Assembly (NCBI GenBank): GCA_002717565.1
Contig: PBAZ01000021.1
Coordinates: forward strand, 28,837 to 65,040
DNA from: Chloroflexota bacterium
GTDB lineage: Bacteria; Chloroflexota; Dehalococcoidia; Lucifugimonadales; GCA-2717565
Direction: 5' to 3'
Length of the DNA: 36,204 bases
Below are positions 15,225 through 23,369 of this stretch, in pieces (the first letter of the stretch is position 1; each line of letters starts with the position of its first letter). The position numbers and the translations under genes are program-made. The notes beneath the pieces are model-generated. The model worked only from the letters and a program-made list of their open reading frames with translations. It was not told where the DNA came from and did not search any database.

Positions 15225-16184
15225 ATGAATACAGAAAAGATAAGTTTTGGGGTAAATTTAAGTGTAGACGACTATGGCGATTGTGGGAAGTTTGCCTCTG
15301 TGGCAGAAGATCTTGGGTTTGATCGTGTATGTACTGGAGAGCACGTTATGGATGGCAATCCTCCGCGGCCTACCATAATGACAATCCCTGCCATGGCTGC
15401 AGCAGCCGGAGCAACACAGCGTATAAGAGTTATGACGGGAATAGTTATAGCACCTTTGTACCACCCAGTTATGCTCGCAAAATTAGTTGCCAGTCTCGAT
15501 ATCGTTTCCAATGGCCGTTTAGACTTCGGAATAGGAATTAGTGGACAGAGGGGAACCAAAGTAGAGTTTGACGCATTAGATATACCGGTCTCTTCTCGTG
15601 GCCGCCGAACCGATGAGATGCTGGAATTAATGAAGCGATTATGGACAGAGGATCACGTTACACATTCGGGAAGATACTTCAATGTGGAAGATGTCACGTT
15701 GCTACCTAAACCCCATCAGACACCTAGCCCACCAATATGGGTGGCCGGCCGTAGTGAGGCTGCTATGAGGCGGGCCATTGTCCATGGCAACGGATGGTAT
15801 CCATACCTTTTTACTGTACGTCGCTTAAAGGCAACTAATGAGCAGATTGTTTCAATCGCTAACGAAATGGGAAAGGACCTAAGTGGCTTTCATTGGGGTC
15901 TGAACCAGCCAACTGCAATTTCATTAGACTCCAAAGCCGCACTGGACAGTGCTATAAGAAACGTAGGCCAGAGATACGTTACCGCCGAAAGAAGTGCTGA
16001 AGATATAGCCAAGGCTTTGTGTGTAACAGGAACCCCAGAAGAATGCATAAGAAGTATAGAGGAACGTGTAGAAACAGGGGTGAAAGAAATCAACTTCGGG
16101 TTCCTCTCGGACACACCGGATGAAATGTACAGACAAATGGAGCTGTTTTCCGAAGAAGTAATGCCCCATTTCAAACACAATTAG
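15225..16184 (+). CDS. Luciferase-like (LLM class) flavin/F420-dependent oxidoreductase
   Basis: AEDLGFDRV..GEH, AGATQRIRV.TGIVIAPLYHPVMLAK..ASLD.VSNGRL.FGIG, PKPHQTPSPPIWVAG. Confidence 0.92.
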   Translation: MNTEKISFGVNLSVDDYGDCGKFASVAEDLGFDRVCTGEHVMDGNPPRPTIMTIPAMAAAAGATQRIRVMTGIVIAPLYHPVMLAKLVASLDIVSNGRLDFGIGISGQRGTKVEFDALDIPVSSRGRRTDEMLELMKRLWTEDHVTHSGRYFNVEDVTLLPKPHQTPSPPIWVAGRSEAAMRRAIVHGNGWYPYLFTVRRLKATNEQIVSIANEMGKDLSGFHWGLNQPTAISLDSKAALDSAIRNVGQRYVTAERSAEDIAKALCVTGTPEECIRSIEERVETGVKEINFGFLSDTPDEMYRQMELFSEEVMPHFKHN

Positions 16185-16186
16185 AC

Positions 16187-16615
16187 ATGCCTCGGTTATC
16201 TTTAACTTCACTAATACCAGGAGCCCCGAAAGAGGTCTTCCAATACGTGACAAAGTTTCCCGTTTCAGGGAACCCTGCTCTTGCAATACTCGAAGATACA
16301 TATGGAAAGGTGATAGAGAGCACGGGTAATATATATATCTTCCATGACAAACAACATGATTACATCACGTGGGAATGCCAGTTCGACGCGCCACACAAAC
16401 GAACTATGAAAGCGTTGAACTCCAGTTGGTCTGACAGAACGGATACTTTCATCAAAGCGGGAGCAAACACTCTGTGGACTATTGATTGGCAATCAAAGGC
16501 TACCGGTTTAGCAGTCTACACTCAATGGATGGCTTTTCATATCAAAGTAAAACGAGAAGCGTATCGAAACATCATTGATCCAGTGGTTTCGCACTTCCGG
16601 GACACCAACAAATGA
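16187..16615 (+). CDS. Small hypothetical protein, probably SRPBCC/START-like fold
   Basis: N-terminal IPGAPKEVFQYV, central FDAPHKR, beta-rich core and C-terminal helix pattern; 2 nt after the LLM gene. Confidence 0.6.
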   Translation: MPRLSLTSLIPGAPKEVFQYVTKFPVSGNPALAILEDTYGKVIESTGNIYIFHDKQHDYITWECQFDAPHKRTMKALNSSWSDRTDTFIKAGANTLWTIDWQSKATGLAVYTQWMAFHIKVKREAYRNIIDPVVSHFRDTNK

Positions 16616-16632
16616 GATCGACTTGACAATAT

Positions 16633-16661
16633 TTGACATTATTCGTAGCCGGGAATAGGCT
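16633..16661 (+). promoter_or_regulatory. Sigma70-type promoter candidate for the MBL gene
   Basis: TTGACA (16633-16638), 17-bp spacer, TAGGCT (16656-16661); a second TTGACA lies 10 bp upstream. Confidence 0.5.
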
Positions 16662-16688
16662 TGAGATTAACGCGACGGGAGTTCAATC

Positions 16689-17813
16689 ATGGATCATAGA
16701 TTCAAAGAGTTATTGGTATTACGTGACGCCAAAGAAAATGGCGACGGCACAGTATTAAAAATTACGACTAAGGGCGACACTGTCATCCATGCGATATCAG
16801 TGGCTCGGGAAGGTTTTTCTTACACTGGACCAACTTGGACGTATCTGTTTGAGAGCGATGGGCTAACTCTAATAGACGCTGGAGAAGCCGGATCCCTTCC
16901 TAGGCTCGAGGACGGCCTAGCGGTAGCCGGCTTTAAACTTCAGGATATTGACAGGGTGATTATCAGTCACGGCCACGAAGACCATGACGGGGCAGTGTCC
17001 GAACTCGTAGAGAAAGCAGATATAGAGGTCTGGGCGCATGAAATTTACGCCCATCTCCAAGCTTATGATCCCCGAACTATTAGCCGGAGAGTCATTTCCC
17101 CAATACAGAAAGAGATGTGGCGAGTAGCAGATCTGAATCGCTCTTTCCCTCCCACATCACCACAAAGGGACGAATACGTGAGACGTCGGCAAGCTCTTAC
17201 AATTGACCACCCAATTAAGGCTAACGAAACGATTGGAAAGCTAGAGATACTGCATACTCCAGGGCATTCTCCTGACGAACTGTGTATGAAGCTCGACGAA
17301 GTGATTTTTACTGGAGACCATGTATTGCCAGAGATTTCACCACACCCGACAATGAAGGCAGAGTTTCCCCCAGAAATTAAAGCAAATCTCCCTGACAGTT
17401 ACAAAGATGCCGACAAATGGTATGGCTTGTCACGTTATTTGCAATCTCTCAAGATAATAGTGGATTTCGGTCCAGAGAGAGAACTCCTACCAGCGCATAG
17501 ATACTACAATCGGGGCCATTTCAACTTTATTAACACGGAGCGTGCCGCAATTATCCTAGACCATCATGGTCAACGTCTTACAGATATATTAGAGAAAGTT
17601 GGGGCTGGAGAAGTAAATCTAGAAGATCTTACACGCGCCGTATTCGCTCATAGAGAACTCCTATCCGACAACTTGTTGGCCGGTTTAAGCGAGGTAGTAG
17701 CGCATGTAGAAATTTTGGAAGAGGTGGGAGATTTAGAAGTATCAGAAGATGGGGTAATATCTGCCACTGGTGTATCAAATCATTTGGGTTTCCTAAGTGC
17801 CTTGCAGGCGTAG
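16689..17813 (+). CDS. Metallo-beta-lactamase-fold hydrolase with C-terminal helical (probably winged-helix-like) extension
   Basis: LIDAG, SHGHEDH, TPGHSPD, FTGDHVLPEISP, LPAH; C-terminal EVVAHVEILEEVG. Confidence 0.88.
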   Translation: MDHRFKELLVLRDAKENGDGTVLKITTKGDTVIHAISVAREGFSYTGPTWTYLFESDGLTLIDAGEAGSLPRLEDGLAVAGFKLQDIDRVIISHGHEDHDGAVSELVEKADIEVWAHEIYAHLQAYDPRTISRRVISPIQKEMWRVADLNRSFPPTSPQRDEYVRRRQALTIDHPIKANETIGKLEILHTPGHSPDELCMKLDEVIFTGDHVLPEISPHPTMKAEFPPEIKANLPDSYKDADKWYGLSRYLQSLKIIVDFGPERELLPAHRYYNRGHFNFINTERAAIILDHHGQRLTDILEKVGAGEVNLEDLTRAVFAHRELLSDNLLAGLSEVVAHVEILEEVGDLEVSEDGVISATGVSNHLGFLSALQA

Positions 17814-17851
17814 GTTAGTCATTTCACAGAGAGTAACTACCCCAAACGTCG

Positions 17852-18634
17852 CTACTGACCATGCGCAGCAACCATATACCGCCCACCAACTACATTGATT
17901 TGATCTCCAGTAACGTAACTGGATTCATCTGACGCTAAATATAGACACGCATTTGCGATGTCAGATACCGTACCGAGCCTGCCTAAGGGCACTGGGTCTA
18001 GGTTGCGAGCAGTCGCCTGACCAAGTTCTGGATTATGAGGAGCCCATTCGGGGTGTCTCCTGCTTGTATCAATAGTTCCTGGGTTGACCATGTTTGCTCT
18101 TATATTGTTCGGAGCGAATTCTGCGGCAACGGCTCTGATAAACCCCCAAAGCCCCGTCTTGGCGGCTGTAACTGCGGAGGTCGATGGCCTTCCAGTAATC
18201 GCGGCCATACCACCTATTCCTATGATACTACCTGTCTGACGCTCTTGCATCTGCGGGATCAGCGCTTTACATAGATAGAAGGTGGAATGGAGATTTATGG
18301 CGAATACTCTATGCCAATCTTCATCGGATACCGTTAGTAAATCATGGTGAGGACGTATAGCCGCATTGCTAACAAGTATGTCTACTTGGCGTAATGCATC
18401 AATACTGTTCTGAGCAAACTTGGAACATTGCGTTGACTCGGCTACGTCTACTTGTTCGGTGTAGACGTTCGCTCCAAATTCGCGACACTCGTCCGCAACC
18501 GCACTCAGATCGTCTGGGCTATTTAGAGAGCAGAGTGCTAGATTCGCGCCTTCTCTTGCAAACGCGGTGGCAATCTCGCGACCGATGTTTCTACTAGCAC
18601 CGGTGATCAGGGCTGTCTTACCTTCAAGTCTCAT
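17852..18634 (-). CDS. Short-chain dehydrogenase/reductase with atypical active site
   Basis: TGASRNIG, DILVSNAA, IRANMVNPG, YLASDESSYVTG; the YxxxK position reads VTAAK. Confidence 0.9.
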   Translation of the reverse strand: MRLEGKTALITGASRNIGREIATAFAREGANLALCSLNSPDDLSAVADECREFGANVYTEQVDVAESTQCSKFAQNSIDALRQVDILVSNAAIRPHHDLLTVSDEDWHRVFAINLHSTFYLCKALIPQMQERQTGSIIGIGGMAAITGRPSTSAVTAAKTGLWGFIRAVAAEFAPNNIRANMVNPGTIDTSRRHPEWAPHNPELGQATARNLDPVPLGRLGTVSDIANACLYLASDESSYVTGDQINVVGGRYMVAAHGQ

Positions 18635-18658
18635 ATCATTATCCTCGGTATGTGACGT

Positions 18659-19420
18659 TTATATAAGCTGGGCTGGTGTGAAAATCCCTTCCATATCTTG
18701 TTCCGTGGCTGGGTCTTCTGCAGTCATATTCAGCTCGGTTTCCATGAACCAATAGATTTGCTTCAGGTGATGTGTACTATGGCTTAGGATTATGTTAAGT
18801 AACTCCAAAACTGTCACTTCACCACCATAGTGGGCAGGTACAACCCGGTCAAAGGCATCTTCATTTTCACTGTTAAGGAACTTCACTATATCTTGTCGCA
18901 CAGTCTCGCCATACTGGCATATCTGGTCTGAAGTTATGACATCGCTCAGCCTCTCCCTAATAGCCTGCATATCATCGGTACTCATACTCCCATGTTCATG
19001 ACTCTTCCAAGCAAGTTCAGGAAACGAGATGATATGTACGATGGAATCCCTGACTCGCTCAGGTCTCCACGGAACGTCTCGTAGGAGTTGATCTGGCGTT
19101 AATTGTTGAGCCGCTCTCATTGCTGCCGATAAGATCAAGTCATACTTTTCAGCCAACCAGCTCGTTCGACCAGAATGCTCTAATGCCGTGGTCAAATTGA
19201 GCGCGGGAATCAGTTTTTTCGGGTAATAACCGATTATCACTTCCGACCCATCTATTATAGTAACGGGCGCAGCCTTAATGCCTCGTGATTCAAGATCTAG
19301 CCGTGCTGGTTCGTCTGTTAAGAGGTCGTGGTGTTCAAAATGAACTCCATTTGATCGTAAGAACTCTTCCAGAGTTCGACAACTGAATCAACCAGGGTTG
19401 GTATAAACGTGTACATCCAT
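18659..19420 (-). CDS. Putative selenoprotein: glutaredoxin/NrdH-like domain (U-F-S-C) fused to DinB/YfiT-like domain, 253 aa
   Basis: ATG at 19420 with GAGGAG RBS. Reads MDVHVYTNPG-TGA(19390-19388)-FSCRTLEEFLRSNGVHFEHHDLLTDEPARLDLESRGIKAAPVTIIDGSEVIIGYYPKKL, in frame with track ORF 18659..19240. C-terminal domain has DinB-type His pattern (SIVH...HSTHH). Confidence 0.85.
19361..19377 (-). promoter_or_regulatory. Candidate bacterial SECIS hairpin
   Basis: mRNA GAACUCU-GGA-AGAGUUC is a perfect 7-bp stem with a G-starting loop. The stem begins 11 nt and the loop 18 nt 3' of the in-frame UGA. Lower pairing GUUGU/ACGAU is also possible. Confidence 0.7.
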
Positions 19421-19507
19421 TTTGTAAGCTCCTCACTATATAACTTTCACAATTCGTATCCGCTAGACCACTATTAATTACTTGTGGTCATAATATAACA
19501 GTCAGTG

Positions 19508-20422
19508 TTAGGGCAGATCACCGGCGTCGGGGTCGGATAATTCCTCTGACACATTTAAATAGGAATTATATTCATACTCGTTTGCTGCTTTATCGATAAT
19601 ATCTTTAGCCTCTTGATTATTTTCGGCTATACGATCGAGAGTCTTTTTTAGAGCTGCAGACTCCTTTACCCCCAATTCTCTAAGCTCTCCAAGATCGAGT
19701 GATAGTCCGCACATGTCTTTGAGACGACGCATAATATCGTAGTATGCTCTGTGATCTGTGTTTATCCCAACTTGTCTGTTTTTCTGCGTAGTGAATGGGT
19801 ACATTGGAGCCATCGCACCAATGCGTAACACTTGATTTTGTGGGTACTTATAATGGGCCAGATTTACCAGAGCCATTCCAATCGTAGGTCCTTGTCGGCC
19901 TGTACTACCGTAGTTTGAATATTGAAAGGCGTAATTATCAAGATCTTCTCTCATTTTCGGGTCACTGTAGACACAGCTAACCCGCCGCTCTAGTTCCGGA
20001 GGAGCAGGCCCGTTATACCCCTCTATAGTAATCGTTCTCGTGACCCCTAAACGATTGATGGCTTCAAAGAACGCCTCACCATATCGTTCGATGTCGTACC
20101 AAGGCTCATTACCTCTGAATATGAGGAGACCGTCGCCTGCGTCGTAAAAGGAATTCTCCCAGGTTGGAGGTGAAGAAGGTAGTCCGTCCTCAAATGATAC
20201 CCTCGGTCGAAAAATGTCGTGAGTTCCGGCTATATGGAACGGAAAACAGATGTGTCCAATTTCAGTACTCATCTCACCAATCTTTTTGGCACCTGTCTTA
20301 TTGATTAAATAGCGAGACAAACCACTTGATATATCCCCACCGTCAGACCATTGCCTACGCCACCCAGCTATCAGATAATTGGCTTTAGGTATCTCAGTAA
20401 AGTGACAATATTTCTCGTCCAT
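19508..20422 (-). CDS. PAC2 (proteasome assembly chaperone-like) family protein
   Basis: LIAGWRRQWSDGGDISS, FRPRVSFEDG, LIFRGNEP, acidic helical C-terminus. Confidence 0.7.
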   Translation of the reverse strand: MDEKYCHFTEIPKANYLIAGWRRQWSDGGDISSGLSRYLINKTGAKKIGEMSTEIGHICFPFHIAGTHDIFRPRVSFEDGLPSSPPTWENSFYDAGDGLLIFRGNEPWYDIERYGEAFFEAINRLGVTRTITIEGYNGPAPPELERRVSCVYSDPKMREDLDNYAFQYSNYGSTGRQGPTIGMALVNLAHYKYPQNQVLRIGAMAPMYPFTTQKNRQVGINTDHRAYYDIMRRLKDMCGLSLDLGELRELGVKESAALKKTLDRIAENNQEAKDIIDKAANEYEYNSYLNVSEELSDPDAGDLP

Positions 20423-20529
20423 TGTTTAACTTCTCGTTCGTAACTAAATATTGAGGTTGTTAGTCTTGATACACATTTCTGGTATTATACACCTTATCTA
20501 AATCTGCTTTGTTTATGACAGGAGGACAT

Positions 20530-21312
20530 ATGGCCTCGGTGGGACGACTCTCCGGAAAAGTAGCGTTGATAACCGGAGCAAGTAGTGGACTCAGCGGTTC
20601 ATTGATGGGATTTGGTGGCGCCGCAGCAAGGCTATTTGCTGACGAAGGGTGCAGTGTAGTCCTGACAGATATAAAAGACGAGGACGGCATAAACACCGCG
20701 AAGCAAATCCGAGATCTCGGCGGTACGGCAACCTACCACCATCTGGATGTTACCAAAGAAGAAGACTGGATTACTATTCTCAGGGAGACGGTAGACAGTT
20801 ACAACAAGATAGACATTCTCGTAAACAACGCTGGCAGTAGCGCTCGCTACACTATAGAGGAAACGACTTCCGAAACCTGGCAGGCTCAAATGGATATCCA
20901 TGGCAAGGGTGTGTTTCTTGGTACAAAACACGTCATTCCCTACCTGCGGCAAAATGGTGGCGGGTCCATAATCAATATTTCATCAATATACGGAATGATT
21001 GGGTCACCTTCGTCTACGGCGTATCATATTGCGAAGGGGGCGTCTCGCCTCTTTACAAAATCGGCAGCAATCCAATACGCTTCAGAAAACATAAGGGTGA
21101 ACTCCATACATCCAGGATTCGCATTCACGCCATTGACCGAAGTGAATTATTCCAAACCTGACTTACAGGAATGGGTGCTGGATCGGATACCTCTGGGGCG
21201 CATGGGAGAAGCTATGGAAATTGCGTATGGGATTCTCTACCTTGCGTCAGACGAAGCATCATTCGTCACGGGTTCTGAGCTAGTGATAGACGGCGGAACT
21301 ACCGCTCAATGA
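20530..21312 (+). CDS. Classical SDR oxidoreductase (3alpha,20beta-HSD/cyclopentanol dehydrogenase-like)
   Basis: LSGKVALITGA, DILVNNAG, INISS, YHIAK, IRVNSIHPG, ASFVTGSELVIDGG; ATG 20530 after AGGAGG. Confidence 0.93.
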   Translation: MASVGRLSGKVALITGASSGLSGSLMGFGGAAARLFADEGCSVVLTDIKDEDGINTAKQIRDLGGTATYHHLDVTKEEDWITILRETVDSYNKIDILVNNAGSSARYTIEETTSETWQAQMDIHGKGVFLGTKHVIPYLRQNGGGSIINISSIYGMIGSPSSTAYHIAKGASRLFTKSAAIQYASENIRVNSIHPGFAFTPLTEVNYSKPDLQEWVLDRIPLGRMGEAMEIAYGILYLASDEASFVTGSELVIDGGTTAQ

Positions 21313-21314
21313 TC

Positions 21315-23369
21315 CTACCGTGGAAATGCTTCCTTGACACCACCATCCACTGGGATCATTGCTCCTGTTGTTCTGGATGAGCGCTCTGATGCCAAGAAAA
21401 GCACGGTTTCAGCAACATCCTGCGCTCTAACCTGGCGTTTTAAGAGAGTCCTGTCATGGTAAAAGGCTTCCAGCCCGTCTACCGTAACTCCGTGCGCTGC
21501 AGCTCTTTCTTCACGCAACTCGGTGGACCATAGCTGTGAGCCTTCAAATATAGCATCAGGGTTGACGACATTAACCCGAATTCCATTAGCACCTGTCTCC
21601 AAAGCTAACACCCTCGCCAGCTGCACTTCCGCGGCCTTGGATACGCTATAAGCTCCAAATTCAGCTCCAGGCGCAGGGACATTCTTGGTTCCAATGAACA
21701 CCAAACTTCCACCTCGGTTCTGTTCTTTCAGGATTTGAATGGCCTTAGCGGCTACTAAGAAATGACCAGTCGTGTTGATATCTAGGGAACGCTGCCAGTC
21801 AGATAGTTCCAGTTTATCAATTGCCCCTACAGGAGCTATCCCTGCATTGGATACGATAATATCTATACCACCATATTGAAGGCGCGTTTGCTCAAATGCG
21901 GCCGCCACTGAATTGGGGTCGCTTACGTCTAATGAAAGGCCGATGGCTCTGTCAAAACCATTCGCGGTTACTATGTCGGCCGCCACTGATTCCGCTGCGT
22001 TACCGGCAATGTCAGTCACGACAACATGTGCACCCTCGCTAGCCAGGCGCTCTGCAATAGCCTTCCCTATACCGCTGGCCGCCCCAGTTACTAATGCTAC
22101 TTTCCTTGCAAGCTCCTTCTCTGGCGGTGCCATTGTTAGTTTATACAGTTCTAGAGGCCAATATTCGGCATCGTAAACATCCTGTGGGGTTAGTGAACTA
22201 TACTGGCTTATCGCTTGAGCTCCACCCATTACATTGATGGTGTGATGGTATATATCCGAAACTATTCTCGCGGCGTGGGCATCGCGACCGGTTGTCCACA
22301 TTCCGACTCCTGGCATGAGGATCACGCGTGGATAGGGATCCAACATGGGGTGTTCTCCTGACGTATGTTTCTCATACCAAGACGTATAATCTGTAACGTA
22401 CTGGTCCATAGCATCATCTATTAATCCCTTGATATCCTCTAGATCGTTCACATCAACCGGATCGACCCACAGTGGCCGGCGCTTTGTATGTATGAGATGA
22501 TCCGGAGTAGCGGGGCCAATTGCGCTTAACCTTTTACCTTCTTCGCTACTTAGAAAAGTCAACACAGACTCGGATGCATCGTATTTGAGTACCATCCCTT
22601 GTCTCTCTGAGACTAACCCGCGAATGTATGGACCGATATCGCTAGCAAGCTTCCTTCTATGTTCATCGCCATTCTTACTAGGCAAAACTGACCCAAATAC
22701 AGATTTGCGACCCTTAGCGATGTATTCTTCTGCCTTGTTCACAAGTGATATATGCTTGTCGTAAGCCTCTTTCGTATCACTGCCCCAAGTGAATAAACCA
22801 TGGTTCATGAGAACCACTCCGTCCAGAGCTGGTGCTTCTTTAACCGCCAGTCCGACCAATTTGCTTAGCTTAAAGCCTGGTCGATAGTAATCCACAACCG
22901 CGATTTTGTCTCCGTACACATCGGCTAAGACTGAACTAGAGTCGTGATTATTAGTCAGCGAAACTACCGCATCAGCGTGCGAATGTGCCACACTCATAAA
23001 CGGTAAAAATGCGTGTAACAGGGTTTCTATTGATGGTCTAGGAGACTCTCCATCCATTAGACATCGTTCTAGGTAAGCGACCATATCTTCATCGGACATG
23101 TCCTCTCGGTCAAAAAGTGGCATGATGTTGTCATGATTAAGTCGCGGAAATTGTGCCCGGTGCATAGATTTCATATCTGATCCAGAGCCCTTTATCCACA
23201 TAGCAGGAGCTTCATTCCCCATGAAATCTTTCTCAATAATTTTAATCGACGTGTTCCCACCTCCCCAAACCACAAGAGAGGTGTCTGCCCCAATTAGGTT
23301 AGTCATATAGACGAGCTTATCTAGCTCATCGAGTCCATCAGCTTTTGTTGGGTCCCATAGGTTCTCCAT
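21315..23369 (-). CDS. Bifunctional class II aldolase / SDR (rhamnulose-1-phosphate aldolase/dehydrogenase-like)
   Basis: GGGNTSIK, KGSGSDM, RPSIETLLH, HSHAD, NHGL, PATPDH, EYWPLELYKL, then TGAASGIG, SNAG, YSVSK, VNPDA; RBS GGAG. Confidence 0.92.
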   Translation of the reverse strand: MENLWDPTKADGLDELDKLVYMTNLIGADTSLVVWGGGNTSIKIIEKDFMGNEAPAMWIKGSGSDMKSMHRAQFPRLNHDNIMPLFDREDMSDEDMVAYLERCLMDGESPRPSIETLLHAFLPFMSVAHSHADAVVSLTNNHDSSSVLADVYGDKIAVVDYYRPGFKLSKLVGLAVKEAPALDGVVLMNHGLFTWGSDTKEAYDKHISLVNKAEEYIAKGRKSVFGSVLPSKNGDEHRRKLASDIGPYIRGLVSERQGMVLKYDASESVLTFLSSEEGKRLSAIGPATPDHLIHTKRRPLWVDPVDVNDLEDIKGLIDDAMDQYVTDYTSWYEKHTSGEHPMLDPYPRVILMPGVGMWTTGRDAHAARIVSDIYHHTINVMGGAQAISQYSSLTPQDVYDAEYWPLELYKLTMAPPEKELARKVALVTGAASGIGKAIAERLASEGAHVVVTDIAGNAAESVAADIVTANGFDRAIGLSLDVSDPNSVAAAFEQTRLQYGGIDIIVSNAGIAPVGAIDKLELSDWQRSLDINTTGHFLVAAKAIQILKEQNRGGSLVFIGTKNVPAPGAEFGAYSVSKAAEVQLARVLALETGANGIRVNVVNPDAIFEGSQLWSTELREERAAAHGVTVDGLEAFYHDRTLLKRQVRAQDVAETVLFLASERSSRTTGAMIPVDGGVKEAFPR

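Follow-up and report, generated by a model that had tools for sequence, protein, structure and literature searches.

We analyzed a 36,204-nucleotide stretch of DNA from a Chloroflexota bacterium of the class Dehalococcoidia (GenBank assembly GCA_002717565.1, contig PBAZ01000021.1, positions 28,837 to 65,040; hereafter, the window). One of its genes, on the minus strand at 18659..19420, very likely encodes a 253-residue selenoprotein, in which a glutaredoxin (Grx)/NrdH-like domain is joined to a DinB-like domain and UGA codon 11 is decoded as selenocysteine (Sec) with the help of a stem-loop. The first-pass annotation, made from the letters of the window, had proposed such a hidden selenoprotein, and both the TGA codon, kept in 80 of 80 close and 8 more distant loci, and the Sec machinery present in the genome agree with it. 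Judged by the comparisons below, the case for Sec decoding is strong.

Reading frame and database annotation

The frame reads MDVHVYTNPG, then TGA, then FSCRTLEEFLRSNGV..., with 242 codons after the TGA up to the TAA on the minus strand. The read-through translation of 253 aa contains this single TGA and no further stop. The GAGGAG ribosome-binding site, the ATG at 19420, the peptide MDVHVYTNPG, the TGA at 19390-19388, and the continuity with the open reading frame (ORF) at 18659..19240, all described in the first-pass annotation, are borne out by the sequence. The apparent gap at 19241-19420, which had been called coding, lies in an open read-through frame whose TGA is conserved in relatives. 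Under translation table 11, the sole ORF listed is 18659..19240, with a GTG start and 193 aa. As there is no ATG, GTG, or TTG between the TGA and 19240 in the window, that product is left without half of the glutaredoxin fold.

Standard gene callers had been expected to truncate the gene, and this is what the databases hold. A word-indexed protein search returned 992 relatives; 117 of the best 120 start 3' of the TGA and cover at most 94% of the query, and one of the 120 is named "DinB family protein." Among 12 top entries inspected, 8 begin MEEFL or LEEFL, directly past the CxxC motif, and 3 are full length, with W, R, and W at the Sec position. Most database entries of the close family thus have the look of truncated gene calls. 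Relatives P0152, P0154, and P0166 (28-30% identity) begin M(T)KEFLS, exactly past the CxxC position, and are probably further truncated Sec forms, of other lineages.

Conservation of the TGA codon and alternation of Sec and Cys

To place the gene among its relatives, one genome per prokaryote species was scanned, and the best 80 of 207 confirmed stretches, with 64-96% protein identity, were taken as the close set; their titles are almost all Dehalococcoidia, Chloroflexota, or SAR202 metagenome-assembled genomes (MAGs). A TGA unique to this assembly, with Cys in the close homologs, had been named as the pattern that would speak against a selenoprotein; the aligned codon is TGA in 80/80 of these loci (PG*FSC). 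An in-frame ATG or GTG lies 6-19 codons 5' of the TGA, stop-free in between, in 81/81 loci with the window included. The amino acids V-H-V-Y-T-N-P-G preceding the TGA are conserved and synonymous sites vary, the valine codon at -8 being GTA, GTT, GTC, or GTG in 22, 20, 19, and 16 cases, respectively. That residues are kept while synonymous sites are free indicates that the codons 5' of the TGA are selected as protein, in this same frame.

The codon is also TGA in eight more distant loci. Two (L022 and L023) come from the same phylum and have only 29-30% identity. Four other genomes of the same order gave five matches (L185-L189, 25-35% identity), all five carrying the TGA; one of these genomes, G438, has two diverged copies (L185 and L189, 35% and 25% identity) with TGA at the active-site codon in both. 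The eighth, L175, is a metagenome contig whose TGA-containing gene is nested inside a Cys clade. Another Sec-form copy, L083, is 68% identical and comes from a genome not named as Chloroflexota, on a contig of 13 kb with the title Candidatus Entotheonella palauensis; mis-binning of a sponge-symbiont contig may explain this, as may transfer.

Homologs with Cys complete the picture. An exhaustive HMMER search gave 348 matches at E ≤0.001, including full-length two-domain proteins at 20-26% identity. In 26 such full-length homologs, Cys aligns with U11, mostly as PGC[ST]SC, and the Cys group as a whole numbers 1169 proteins at E ≤1e-10. Among 80 metagenome loci of this group, the codon is TGC or TGT in 75 and TGA in 1, with 4 unlocated by pattern, a count biased by one search pattern that required Cys. 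The first-pass annotation had placed the TGA at the attacking Cys of the CxxC motif, and the Cys forms, which read PGCSSC there, agree; on the alignment, U11 is the first Cys position of that motif. The homologs it had suggested looking for, with TGA or with Cys at codon 11 and with the same fusion, were found in both kinds. The Sec label requires at least three changes on a tree of 52 rows, which comprise the window, 12 close loci out of the 80, 27 Cys forms, 3 of the distant Sec loci, and 9 truncated entries. These alignments strongly support a large two-domain family in which Sec and Cys alternate at the U11 position, and the window gene is, with little doubt, a real selenoprotein gene whose UGA codon 11 would be decoded as Sec.

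Selenocysteine machinery and genetic code

The source genome (1.68 Mb, 32 contigs, rated 90.9% complete) was searched for selA, selB, selD, and tRNA-Sec, as had been proposed, and all four are present above cut-off. The selA gene scores 446.4 bits and selD 370.6 bits (G000:C1:265846-266766, L001). Two selB-like genes score 327.8 and 324.7 bits, the latter 350.6 with neighbouring pieces, and tRNA-Sec scores 67.2 bits in Rfam, with the anticodon tca by ARAGORN. Neither selA nor the selB-like genes contain internal stops. TGA is the stop of 9/29 long ORFs in the window, which indicates that the genetic code is standard.

Two features of this machinery stand out. The selD gene itself has one in-frame TGA, and on its sequence the SelD here is probably also a selenoprotein. 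The two selB-like genes lie at G000:C8:96196-98046 and G000:C16:13571-15427 (L005, L006, L012), a second SelB paralog being unusual for a small genome.

RNA signal downstream of the UGA

Past the UGA, the window RNA is predicted to form a stem-loop resembling a Sec insertion sequence (SECIS) element (Table 1), whose upper stem begins 10 nt past the codon in both the minimum-energy and the centroid folds. Each of the Sec lineages that were folded has a hairpin 3' of the TGA, and the hairpin sequence differs among lineages. At the same place, most close relatives have GGACG.../...CGUCC, L022 and L023 have GACGAAAGC/GCUUUCGUC, L175 has CCAAGG/CCUUGG, and the five same-order loci have CGAAAGA-GUU-UCUUUCG or a one-letter variant.

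An RNA alignment of 75 sequences (66 distinct rows) was used to look at pairing across relatives. In the helix of columns 20-25/40-45, 88.9% of cells are paired and 23 are compensatory, for the most part with U-A replacing C-G at a single pair, a level reached by 0/500 shuffles; extended to columns 20-30/35-45, the helix has 84.3% paired. The RNAalifold consensus instead contains a long-range helix of columns 20-27/48-55, which is 97.2% paired and nearly invariant; with only 3 compensatory cells, it was not taken as settled structure. In the window, the 5' arm of the hairpin likewise has an alternative partner, at 19349-19342.

Constraint at the nucleotide level is consistent with such an element. 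Windows across codons 3-33 have a synonymous codon entropy of 0.41-0.90, compared with 1.15 on average for the whole gene and 0.86-1.62 in later windows. When the 54 nt past the codon were folded, the median z relative to shuffles was -1.21 for 59 distinct close Sec sequences, -0.97 for 8 distant Sec sequences, and +0.17 for 71 Cys sequences. A SECIS-like element is very probably present, with several helix registers that fit the data.

Domains and predicted structure

Both domains assigned in the first-pass annotation are recovered. In the HMM scan it had suggested, Pfam Glutaredoxin (PF00462) matches residues 3-59 with 33.4 bits against a cut-off of 22.9, and DinB_2 (PF12867) matches residues 165-222 with 30.0 bits against 24.8, both above cut-off; PF05163 (DinB) stays below, at 19.7 versus 23. 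No NCBIfam model reaches its cut-off for the Sec form, nor for the Cys form. The best of them, YruB (TIGR02196, 48.3 versus 88.55) and NrdH (TIGR02194, 39.8 versus 85.75), are both below, as is the mycothiol S-transferase (MST) model MST_Rv0443 (NF047843), at 19.9 bits versus 170. A PDB profile search returned glutaredoxin 7c10 (1.3e-17), NrdH proteins, and YfiT 1rxq (5.3e-7).

An AlphaFold2 model of the read-through product, built on an 80-sequence alignment, has a mean predicted local distance difference test (pLDDT) of 95.1 and a predicted template modeling score (pTM) of 0.91. It runs from a strand at residues 3-7 directly into a helix at 12-23, with UxxC at the helix start, and the thioredoxin fold extends to about residue 73. 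Long helices follow at 86-106, 123-143, 148-160, 164-182, and 204-229, and then an ordered tail without secondary structure. Foldseek places the N-domain with the Grx structures cGrx1 7c12/7c10 (40-41% identity, template modeling [TM] score 0.90-0.95 on target), BC3987, and NrdH proteins, and the C-domain with YizA 2qe9, YjoA 3dka, 2p1a, YfiT 1rxq, and DR0053 6iz2 (probability 1.00, TM 0.69-0.82 on targets). In the PDB, Foldseek finds no chain spanning both domains, the best TM on query being 0.51.

The His pattern that had been noted, SIVH...HSTHH, is present as SIVH with H129 and LSHSTHH with H214, H217, and H218. H129, H214, and H218, together with G200, Q221, and P249, are at least 90% conserved over the 80-sequence alignment, and P52 is invariant. 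The conserved His triad, which we take to be the YfiT ligand positions, falls on the model helices 123-143 and 204-229, as expected for DinB. The two-domain Grx/NrdH-like plus DinB-like architecture is near certain.

Presence in sequenced samples

Seven studies contain an 862-base stretch in full, in 14 marine DNA runs, any of which may be the source of this DNA. RNA libraries of four studies contain part of it, with 42-77% of its sampled words present in 6 runs. The RNA-library contig X20, record 12, crosses the TGA from 19264 to 19431, and contig X15, record 4, extends from 18696 to 19403, only 13 nt beyond the codon; neither has a listed difference at 19388-19390. The contigs of X17 and X18 end short of the TGA or fail to bridge it. 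Short RNA-library contigs in X17 and X20 match only 19358-19420, from the start codon to a little beyond the hairpin, and then continue into unlike sequence; an origin in other organisms fits the nucleotide-level conservation around the UGA.

Gene neighborhood

Upstream of the selenoprotein gene lies a gene for a PAC2-family protein (Table 1), and this linkage recurs. With the window counted, 60/81 loci have a PAC2 homolog no more than 3 kb from the selenoprotein gene. In 34 of them, it follows the gene on the same strand. Where it lies upstream, it is on the same strand in 7 loci, with 5 adjacent to the gene, and on the opposite strand in 19. The downstream PAC2 genes often start about 20-70 nt past the selenoprotein stop. 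Across 39 PAC2 sequences, mean column identity is 71%, and C59, C150, H68, and D69 are invariant. The model of the PAC2 protein (pLDDT 80.9) matches the folds of PbaB, PbaA, Rv2714, Rv2125, and other PAC2-fold proteins and has two conserved loops with low pLDDT. We know of no assigned function for PAC2-fold proteins in bacteria; this one is a possible partner or substrate of the selenoprotein.

The linkage does not extend to distant forms. No PAC2 gene adjoins 7 distant Sec loci within 1.5-kb flanks, where the contig allows, though the genomes of the distant Sec loci have PAC2 genes elsewhere, and none adjoins 80 Cys-form loci. Among the 43 Cys-form loci longer than 5 kb, no neighbor cluster taken as a real gene is common to more than about 10; the larger clusters are probably overlapping-frame shadows of the gene itself. 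Other common neighbors of the close loci, a GMC oxidoreductase in 46 and an MFS transporter in 31, are read as plain synteny. In the window, the surroundings from 15225 to 23369 are catabolic-looking and oxidoreductase-rich. The dehydrogenase gene at 17852-18634 starts 24 nt past the selenoprotein stop and may be co-transcribed with it.

Table 1. Coordinates of the selenoprotein gene, its parts, and nearby genes in the window
Feature	Position	Strand	Details
Selenoprotein gene	18659..19420	minus	ATG 19420-19418; Sec codon 11; TAA 18661-18659; 253-aa product
Ribosome-binding site GAGGAG	19429..19434	minus	8 nt 5' of the ATG; direct sequence reading
In-frame TGA, read as Sec (U11)	19388..19390	minus	First residue of U-F-S-C
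SECIS-like stem-loop	19354..19383	minus	Lower stem GUUGU/ACGAU; upper stem GAACUCU/AGAGUUC, 19377-19371 with 19367-19361; loop GGA 19370-19368
Glutaredoxin/NrdH-like thioredoxin-fold domain	19187..19420	minus	Residues 1 to ~78; UxxC 11-14; P52 cis-Pro candidate
DinB/YfiT-like helical bundle with ordered C-terminal tail	18662..19165	minus	Residues 86-253
His codons	19036-19034; 18781-18779; 18769-18767	minus	H129; H214; H218
PAC2-family gene	19508..20422	minus	304 aa; 87 nt upstream, same strand; Pfam PAC2 51.8 bits
Luciferase-like monooxygenase	15225-16184		
Metallo-beta-lactamase fold protein	16689-17813		
Short-chain dehydrogenases	17852-18634; 20509-21312		Three in the surroundings
Aldolase-dehydrogenase fusion	21315-23369		

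Alternative readings of the TGA

Several observations weigh against a Sec-decoded UGA with its own RNA signal. Single-sequence folds are only weakly better than shuffles (12 folds, z of +0.45 to -2.49), and the window hairpin has a z of -0.47 to -0.72, unremarkable for its base composition. The alignment accommodates two helices that exclude each other, and the window hairpin is in a third register. The Sec versus Cys fold comparison gives Mann-Whitney p values of 1e-10 (close) and 0.006 (distant), which are overstated because the sequences are kin. Rfam finds no SECIS family, whether the whole window is searched at gathering scores or the interval 19250-19470 with E ≤10. In database entries, the residue at the Sec position is W (P0010, P0024, and P0139), R (P0023), or S (the fragment P0225). 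Finally, the RNA-library contigs are a hint of expression and no proof of it, because RNA libraries can carry DNA.

One rival reading is that the TGA acts as a genuine stop, or reflects a pseudogene lesion or an error of assembly, and that the cell makes a DinB-only protein from an internal start such as the GTG at 19240. Gene callers annotate it so, as the 117 of the best 120 matches that start after the TGA attest, and table 11 yields only the 193-aa ORF. We nevertheless regard this as highly improbable: independent assemblies keep the TGA in all 80 close and 8 distant loci, the stretch recurs whole in the 14 DNA runs, and the ten codons 5' of the TGA are conserved as protein with synonymous change free. 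Moreover, the product of the internal start would be without half of the glutaredoxin fold, whereas the full read-through product folds as one confident two-domain protein (pTM 0.91).

No more credence can be given to read-through of the UGA as Trp, Cys, or Gly, by a recoded lineage or near-cognate suppression. The entries with W at the position and the failure of Rfam to find a SECIS family would fit it, but TGA is an ordinary stop for 9/29 long ORFs, selA and selB are free of internal stops, and the genome has a full Sec system. The position is that of the attacking Cys of CxxC in homologs, where Trp or Gly would kill redox activity, and the hairpin 3' of the codon is specific to Sec forms. 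The W entries, of which P0010 and P0024 lie on contigs of 1.2-1.6 kb, are most simply, and probably, explained by gene calling with TGA read as Trp. The Arg entry P0023 would require a genuine CGA or AGA codon.

Proposed mechanism and functional alternatives

If the UGA is decoded as Sec, a reaction scheme can be drawn. SelA, SelB, SelD, and tRNA-Sec would decode UGA codon 11, aided by the stem-loop about 10 nt downstream. The DinB domain would hold the metal and the substrate, the U11 selenolate would attack the DinB-held substrate or its conjugate, and C14 would resolve the adduct as a selenenyl-sulfide. The oxidized redoxin would then be re-reduced by thioredoxin reductase, as NrdH-type redoxins are, and the protein would amount to a thiol enzyme of the DinB type whose own tethered nucleophile takes the place of bacillithiol or mycothiol. 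In bacillithiol and mycothiol S-transferases of the DinB family, a metal is bound and a thiolate is positioned against the substrate; because the two domains are fused here, the U11 selenolate as nucleophile at the DinB site is the simplest reading. NrdH/YruB-type redoxins are reduced by thioredoxin reductase and are not glutathione dependent, and the genome has a thioredoxin reductase (397.8 bits). The general scheme of metal and substrate in DinB, attack by U11, resolution by C14, and reset by the reductase is offered tentatively, as a possibility somewhat short of probable.

The scheme has to be set beside a more conventional one, in which DinB conjugates a diffusible low-molecular-weight thiol to an electrophile and the Sec-redoxin de-thiolates the product or the enzyme. 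The characterized DinB-family enzymes are known as bacillithiol or mycothiol S-transferases, one model of which, MST_Rv0443, matches weakly (19.9 bits), and glutaredoxin-type domains typically strip thiol adducts. However, BshC, GshB, and EgtB were not found in the 90.9%-complete genome and no MshC rises above cut-off, the MshC-like matches of 258 and 213.7 bits being far below the 485 required; as the genome is 90.9% complete, the missing markers are no proof of absence. The redoxin also scores best with NrdH and YruB, which we take to be thioredoxin-reductase-dependent families. We consider a diffusible-thiol enzyme unlikely, and the tethered Sec nucleophile fits at least as well. The same missing markers tell in part against the tethered scheme too, since they leave a thiol chemistry without an identified cofactor. 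The two MshC-like genes (G000:C22:21088-22284 and G000:C5:30268-31398) are probably cysteinyl-tRNA synthetase-like; one of them is part of an open frame of 744 aa, which exceeds the usual length of a cysteinyl-tRNA synthetase.

The neighborhood suggests another role for the selenoprotein, as a dedicated redox partner, reductase or sensor, of the PAC2 protein, acting on its two invariant Cys, with the DinB domain no small-molecule enzyme. The proximity of PAC2 in 60/81 loci in three arrangements, often within about 20-70 nt of the stop, speaks for this, as do the invariance of C59 and C150 and the two conserved low-pLDDT loops, which resemble parts that might order on binding. Yet PAC2 is not adjacent in the 7 distant Sec loci, though present elsewhere in those genomes, nor in the 80 Cys-form loci, and the His triad is conserved family-wide, including in members without a PAC2 neighbor. 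Because the 81 loci are fairly close relatives, part of the linkage is inherited synteny. A role confined to PAC2 appears quite unlikely.

Returning to the tethered Sec nucleophile, a bolder version can be stated, although we think it doubtful. The protein might be a DinB-family enzyme that does without a low-molecular-weight thiol, using its tethered Sec as nucleophile at the His-bound metal with recycling by thioredoxin reductase, and it might serve, alongside the PAC2-fold protein, the selenium-dependent reduction or detoxification of electrophilic or halogenated organic matter in marine Dehalococcoidia (SAR202-type, sponge-associated).

If the selenoprotein reading holds, the practical consequence is that public databases truncate a protein family that many marine Dehalococcoidia genomes encode. 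As the truncation removes the catalytic residue and half a domain, metabolic reconstructions and proteomic searches miss the protein. If the proposed reading is true, DinB carries its own Sec or Cys redoxin in a genome where none of the four thiol markers searched was found, which would be a different way of running DinB chemistry, and the window supplies a concrete protein for testing a Sec redoxin joined with a DinB thiol-enzyme fold. It would also be a widespread selenoprotein of the aerobic ocean and of sponge symbionts, with Sec/Cys switching at least three times on the tree, which is useful for studying why Sec is retained.

Comparison with known systems

New prokaryotic selenoprotein families are still reported regularly. 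Sec-Grx with UxxC and the DinB/YfiT superfamily are each known, and the fusion, and Sec in the fusion, we have not found described; the first-pass annotation had likewise not recognized the fusion as a described family, and main texts and titles in the literature agree. The term DinB does not occur in the main texts, as distinct from supplements and database contents, of two reviews, from 2022 (PMC9312934) and 2026 (PMC13188914), or in those of the papers on the Global Ocean Sampling (GOS) selenoproteome (PMC2398784) and BSepDB (PMC13326102), and literature title searches on selenoprotein, DinB, glutaredoxin, NrdH, and SAR202 gave no title pointing to this fusion. The 2026 review names UxxC Sec-Grx as one of the selenoprotein families (PMC13188914), and the GOS selenoproteome includes 42 sequences of a "Grx-like" UxxC family, with which the present family could overlap (PMC2398784). 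The BSepDB paper places Dehalococcoidia with the bacteria richest in selenoproteins, at 49 and 46 genes (PMC13326102). The database may hold this family under another name.

Two resemblances were considered and set aside. Homology to glutathione S-transferases (GSTs) was rejected, with TM of 0.24-0.33 on query and a root mean square deviation of 13-18 Å, the helical domain being a DinB bundle. Cys-type GSTs resolve thiol conjugates reductively, and the likeness is architectural only, a thioredoxin-fold N-domain with a helical C-domain forming the substrate site. The UXX-star selenoproteins NF041212, NF041211, and NF047338 score 31.2 versus 66, 25.6 versus 100, and 12.2 versus 97, respectively; their Sec lies three residues from the C terminus, whereas in the window protein Sec is residue 11 of 253.

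Among solved structures, the best match to the N-domain is the Sec-glutaredoxin cGrx1 of Clostridium oremlandii (7c10/7c12), which is presumably a selenoprotein in nature; the profile E value, identity, and TM are those given above, and the likeness lies in a thioredoxin fold whose helix 1 starts with U/C-x-x-C. In contrast to known Sec-Grx proteins, which are single-domain and about 75-85 aa long, the redoxin here has the motif U-F-S-C and is fused to a 170-residue DinB domain. NrdH/YruB-type proteins are the best NCBIfam matches, the NrdH structures 4fiw, 4hs1, and 1h75 match the N-domain, and a G-Y-Y-P-K-K-L stretch resembles what we take to be the NrdH WSGFRP region. The window protein differs from them in scoring below the cut-offs, in the lack of any ribonucleotide reductase context seen, in its use of Sec, and in the extra fused domain. 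With the DinB/YfiT superfamily (YfiT/BstA and MST), it shares a DinB_2 match above cut-off, bundle matches, and three conserved His, but it stands apart from the S-transferases in its MST_Rv0443 score (19.9 versus 170) and in a genome in which no bacillithiol or mycothiol pathway was found. To our knowledge, no known DinB/YfiT member has a fused redoxin or Sec.

Further counterparts are the uncharacterized Cys-form glutaredoxin-DinB fusions of marine and soil bacteria (e.g., P0173), which carry source names such as "glutaredoxin," "DinB family protein," and "glutaredoxin domain-containing protein" and come from Gammaproteobacteria and Rhodospirillales. They differ from the window protein in their 20-26% identity, in having Cys for Sec (with L175 as the exception), and in having no PAC2 neighbor. 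They share with it the same build, length, and His triad, a CxxC that aligns with the UxxC, and a similar C-terminal Gly/Pro tail, G.P.P in the Cys forms and EGI.TP in the window protein.

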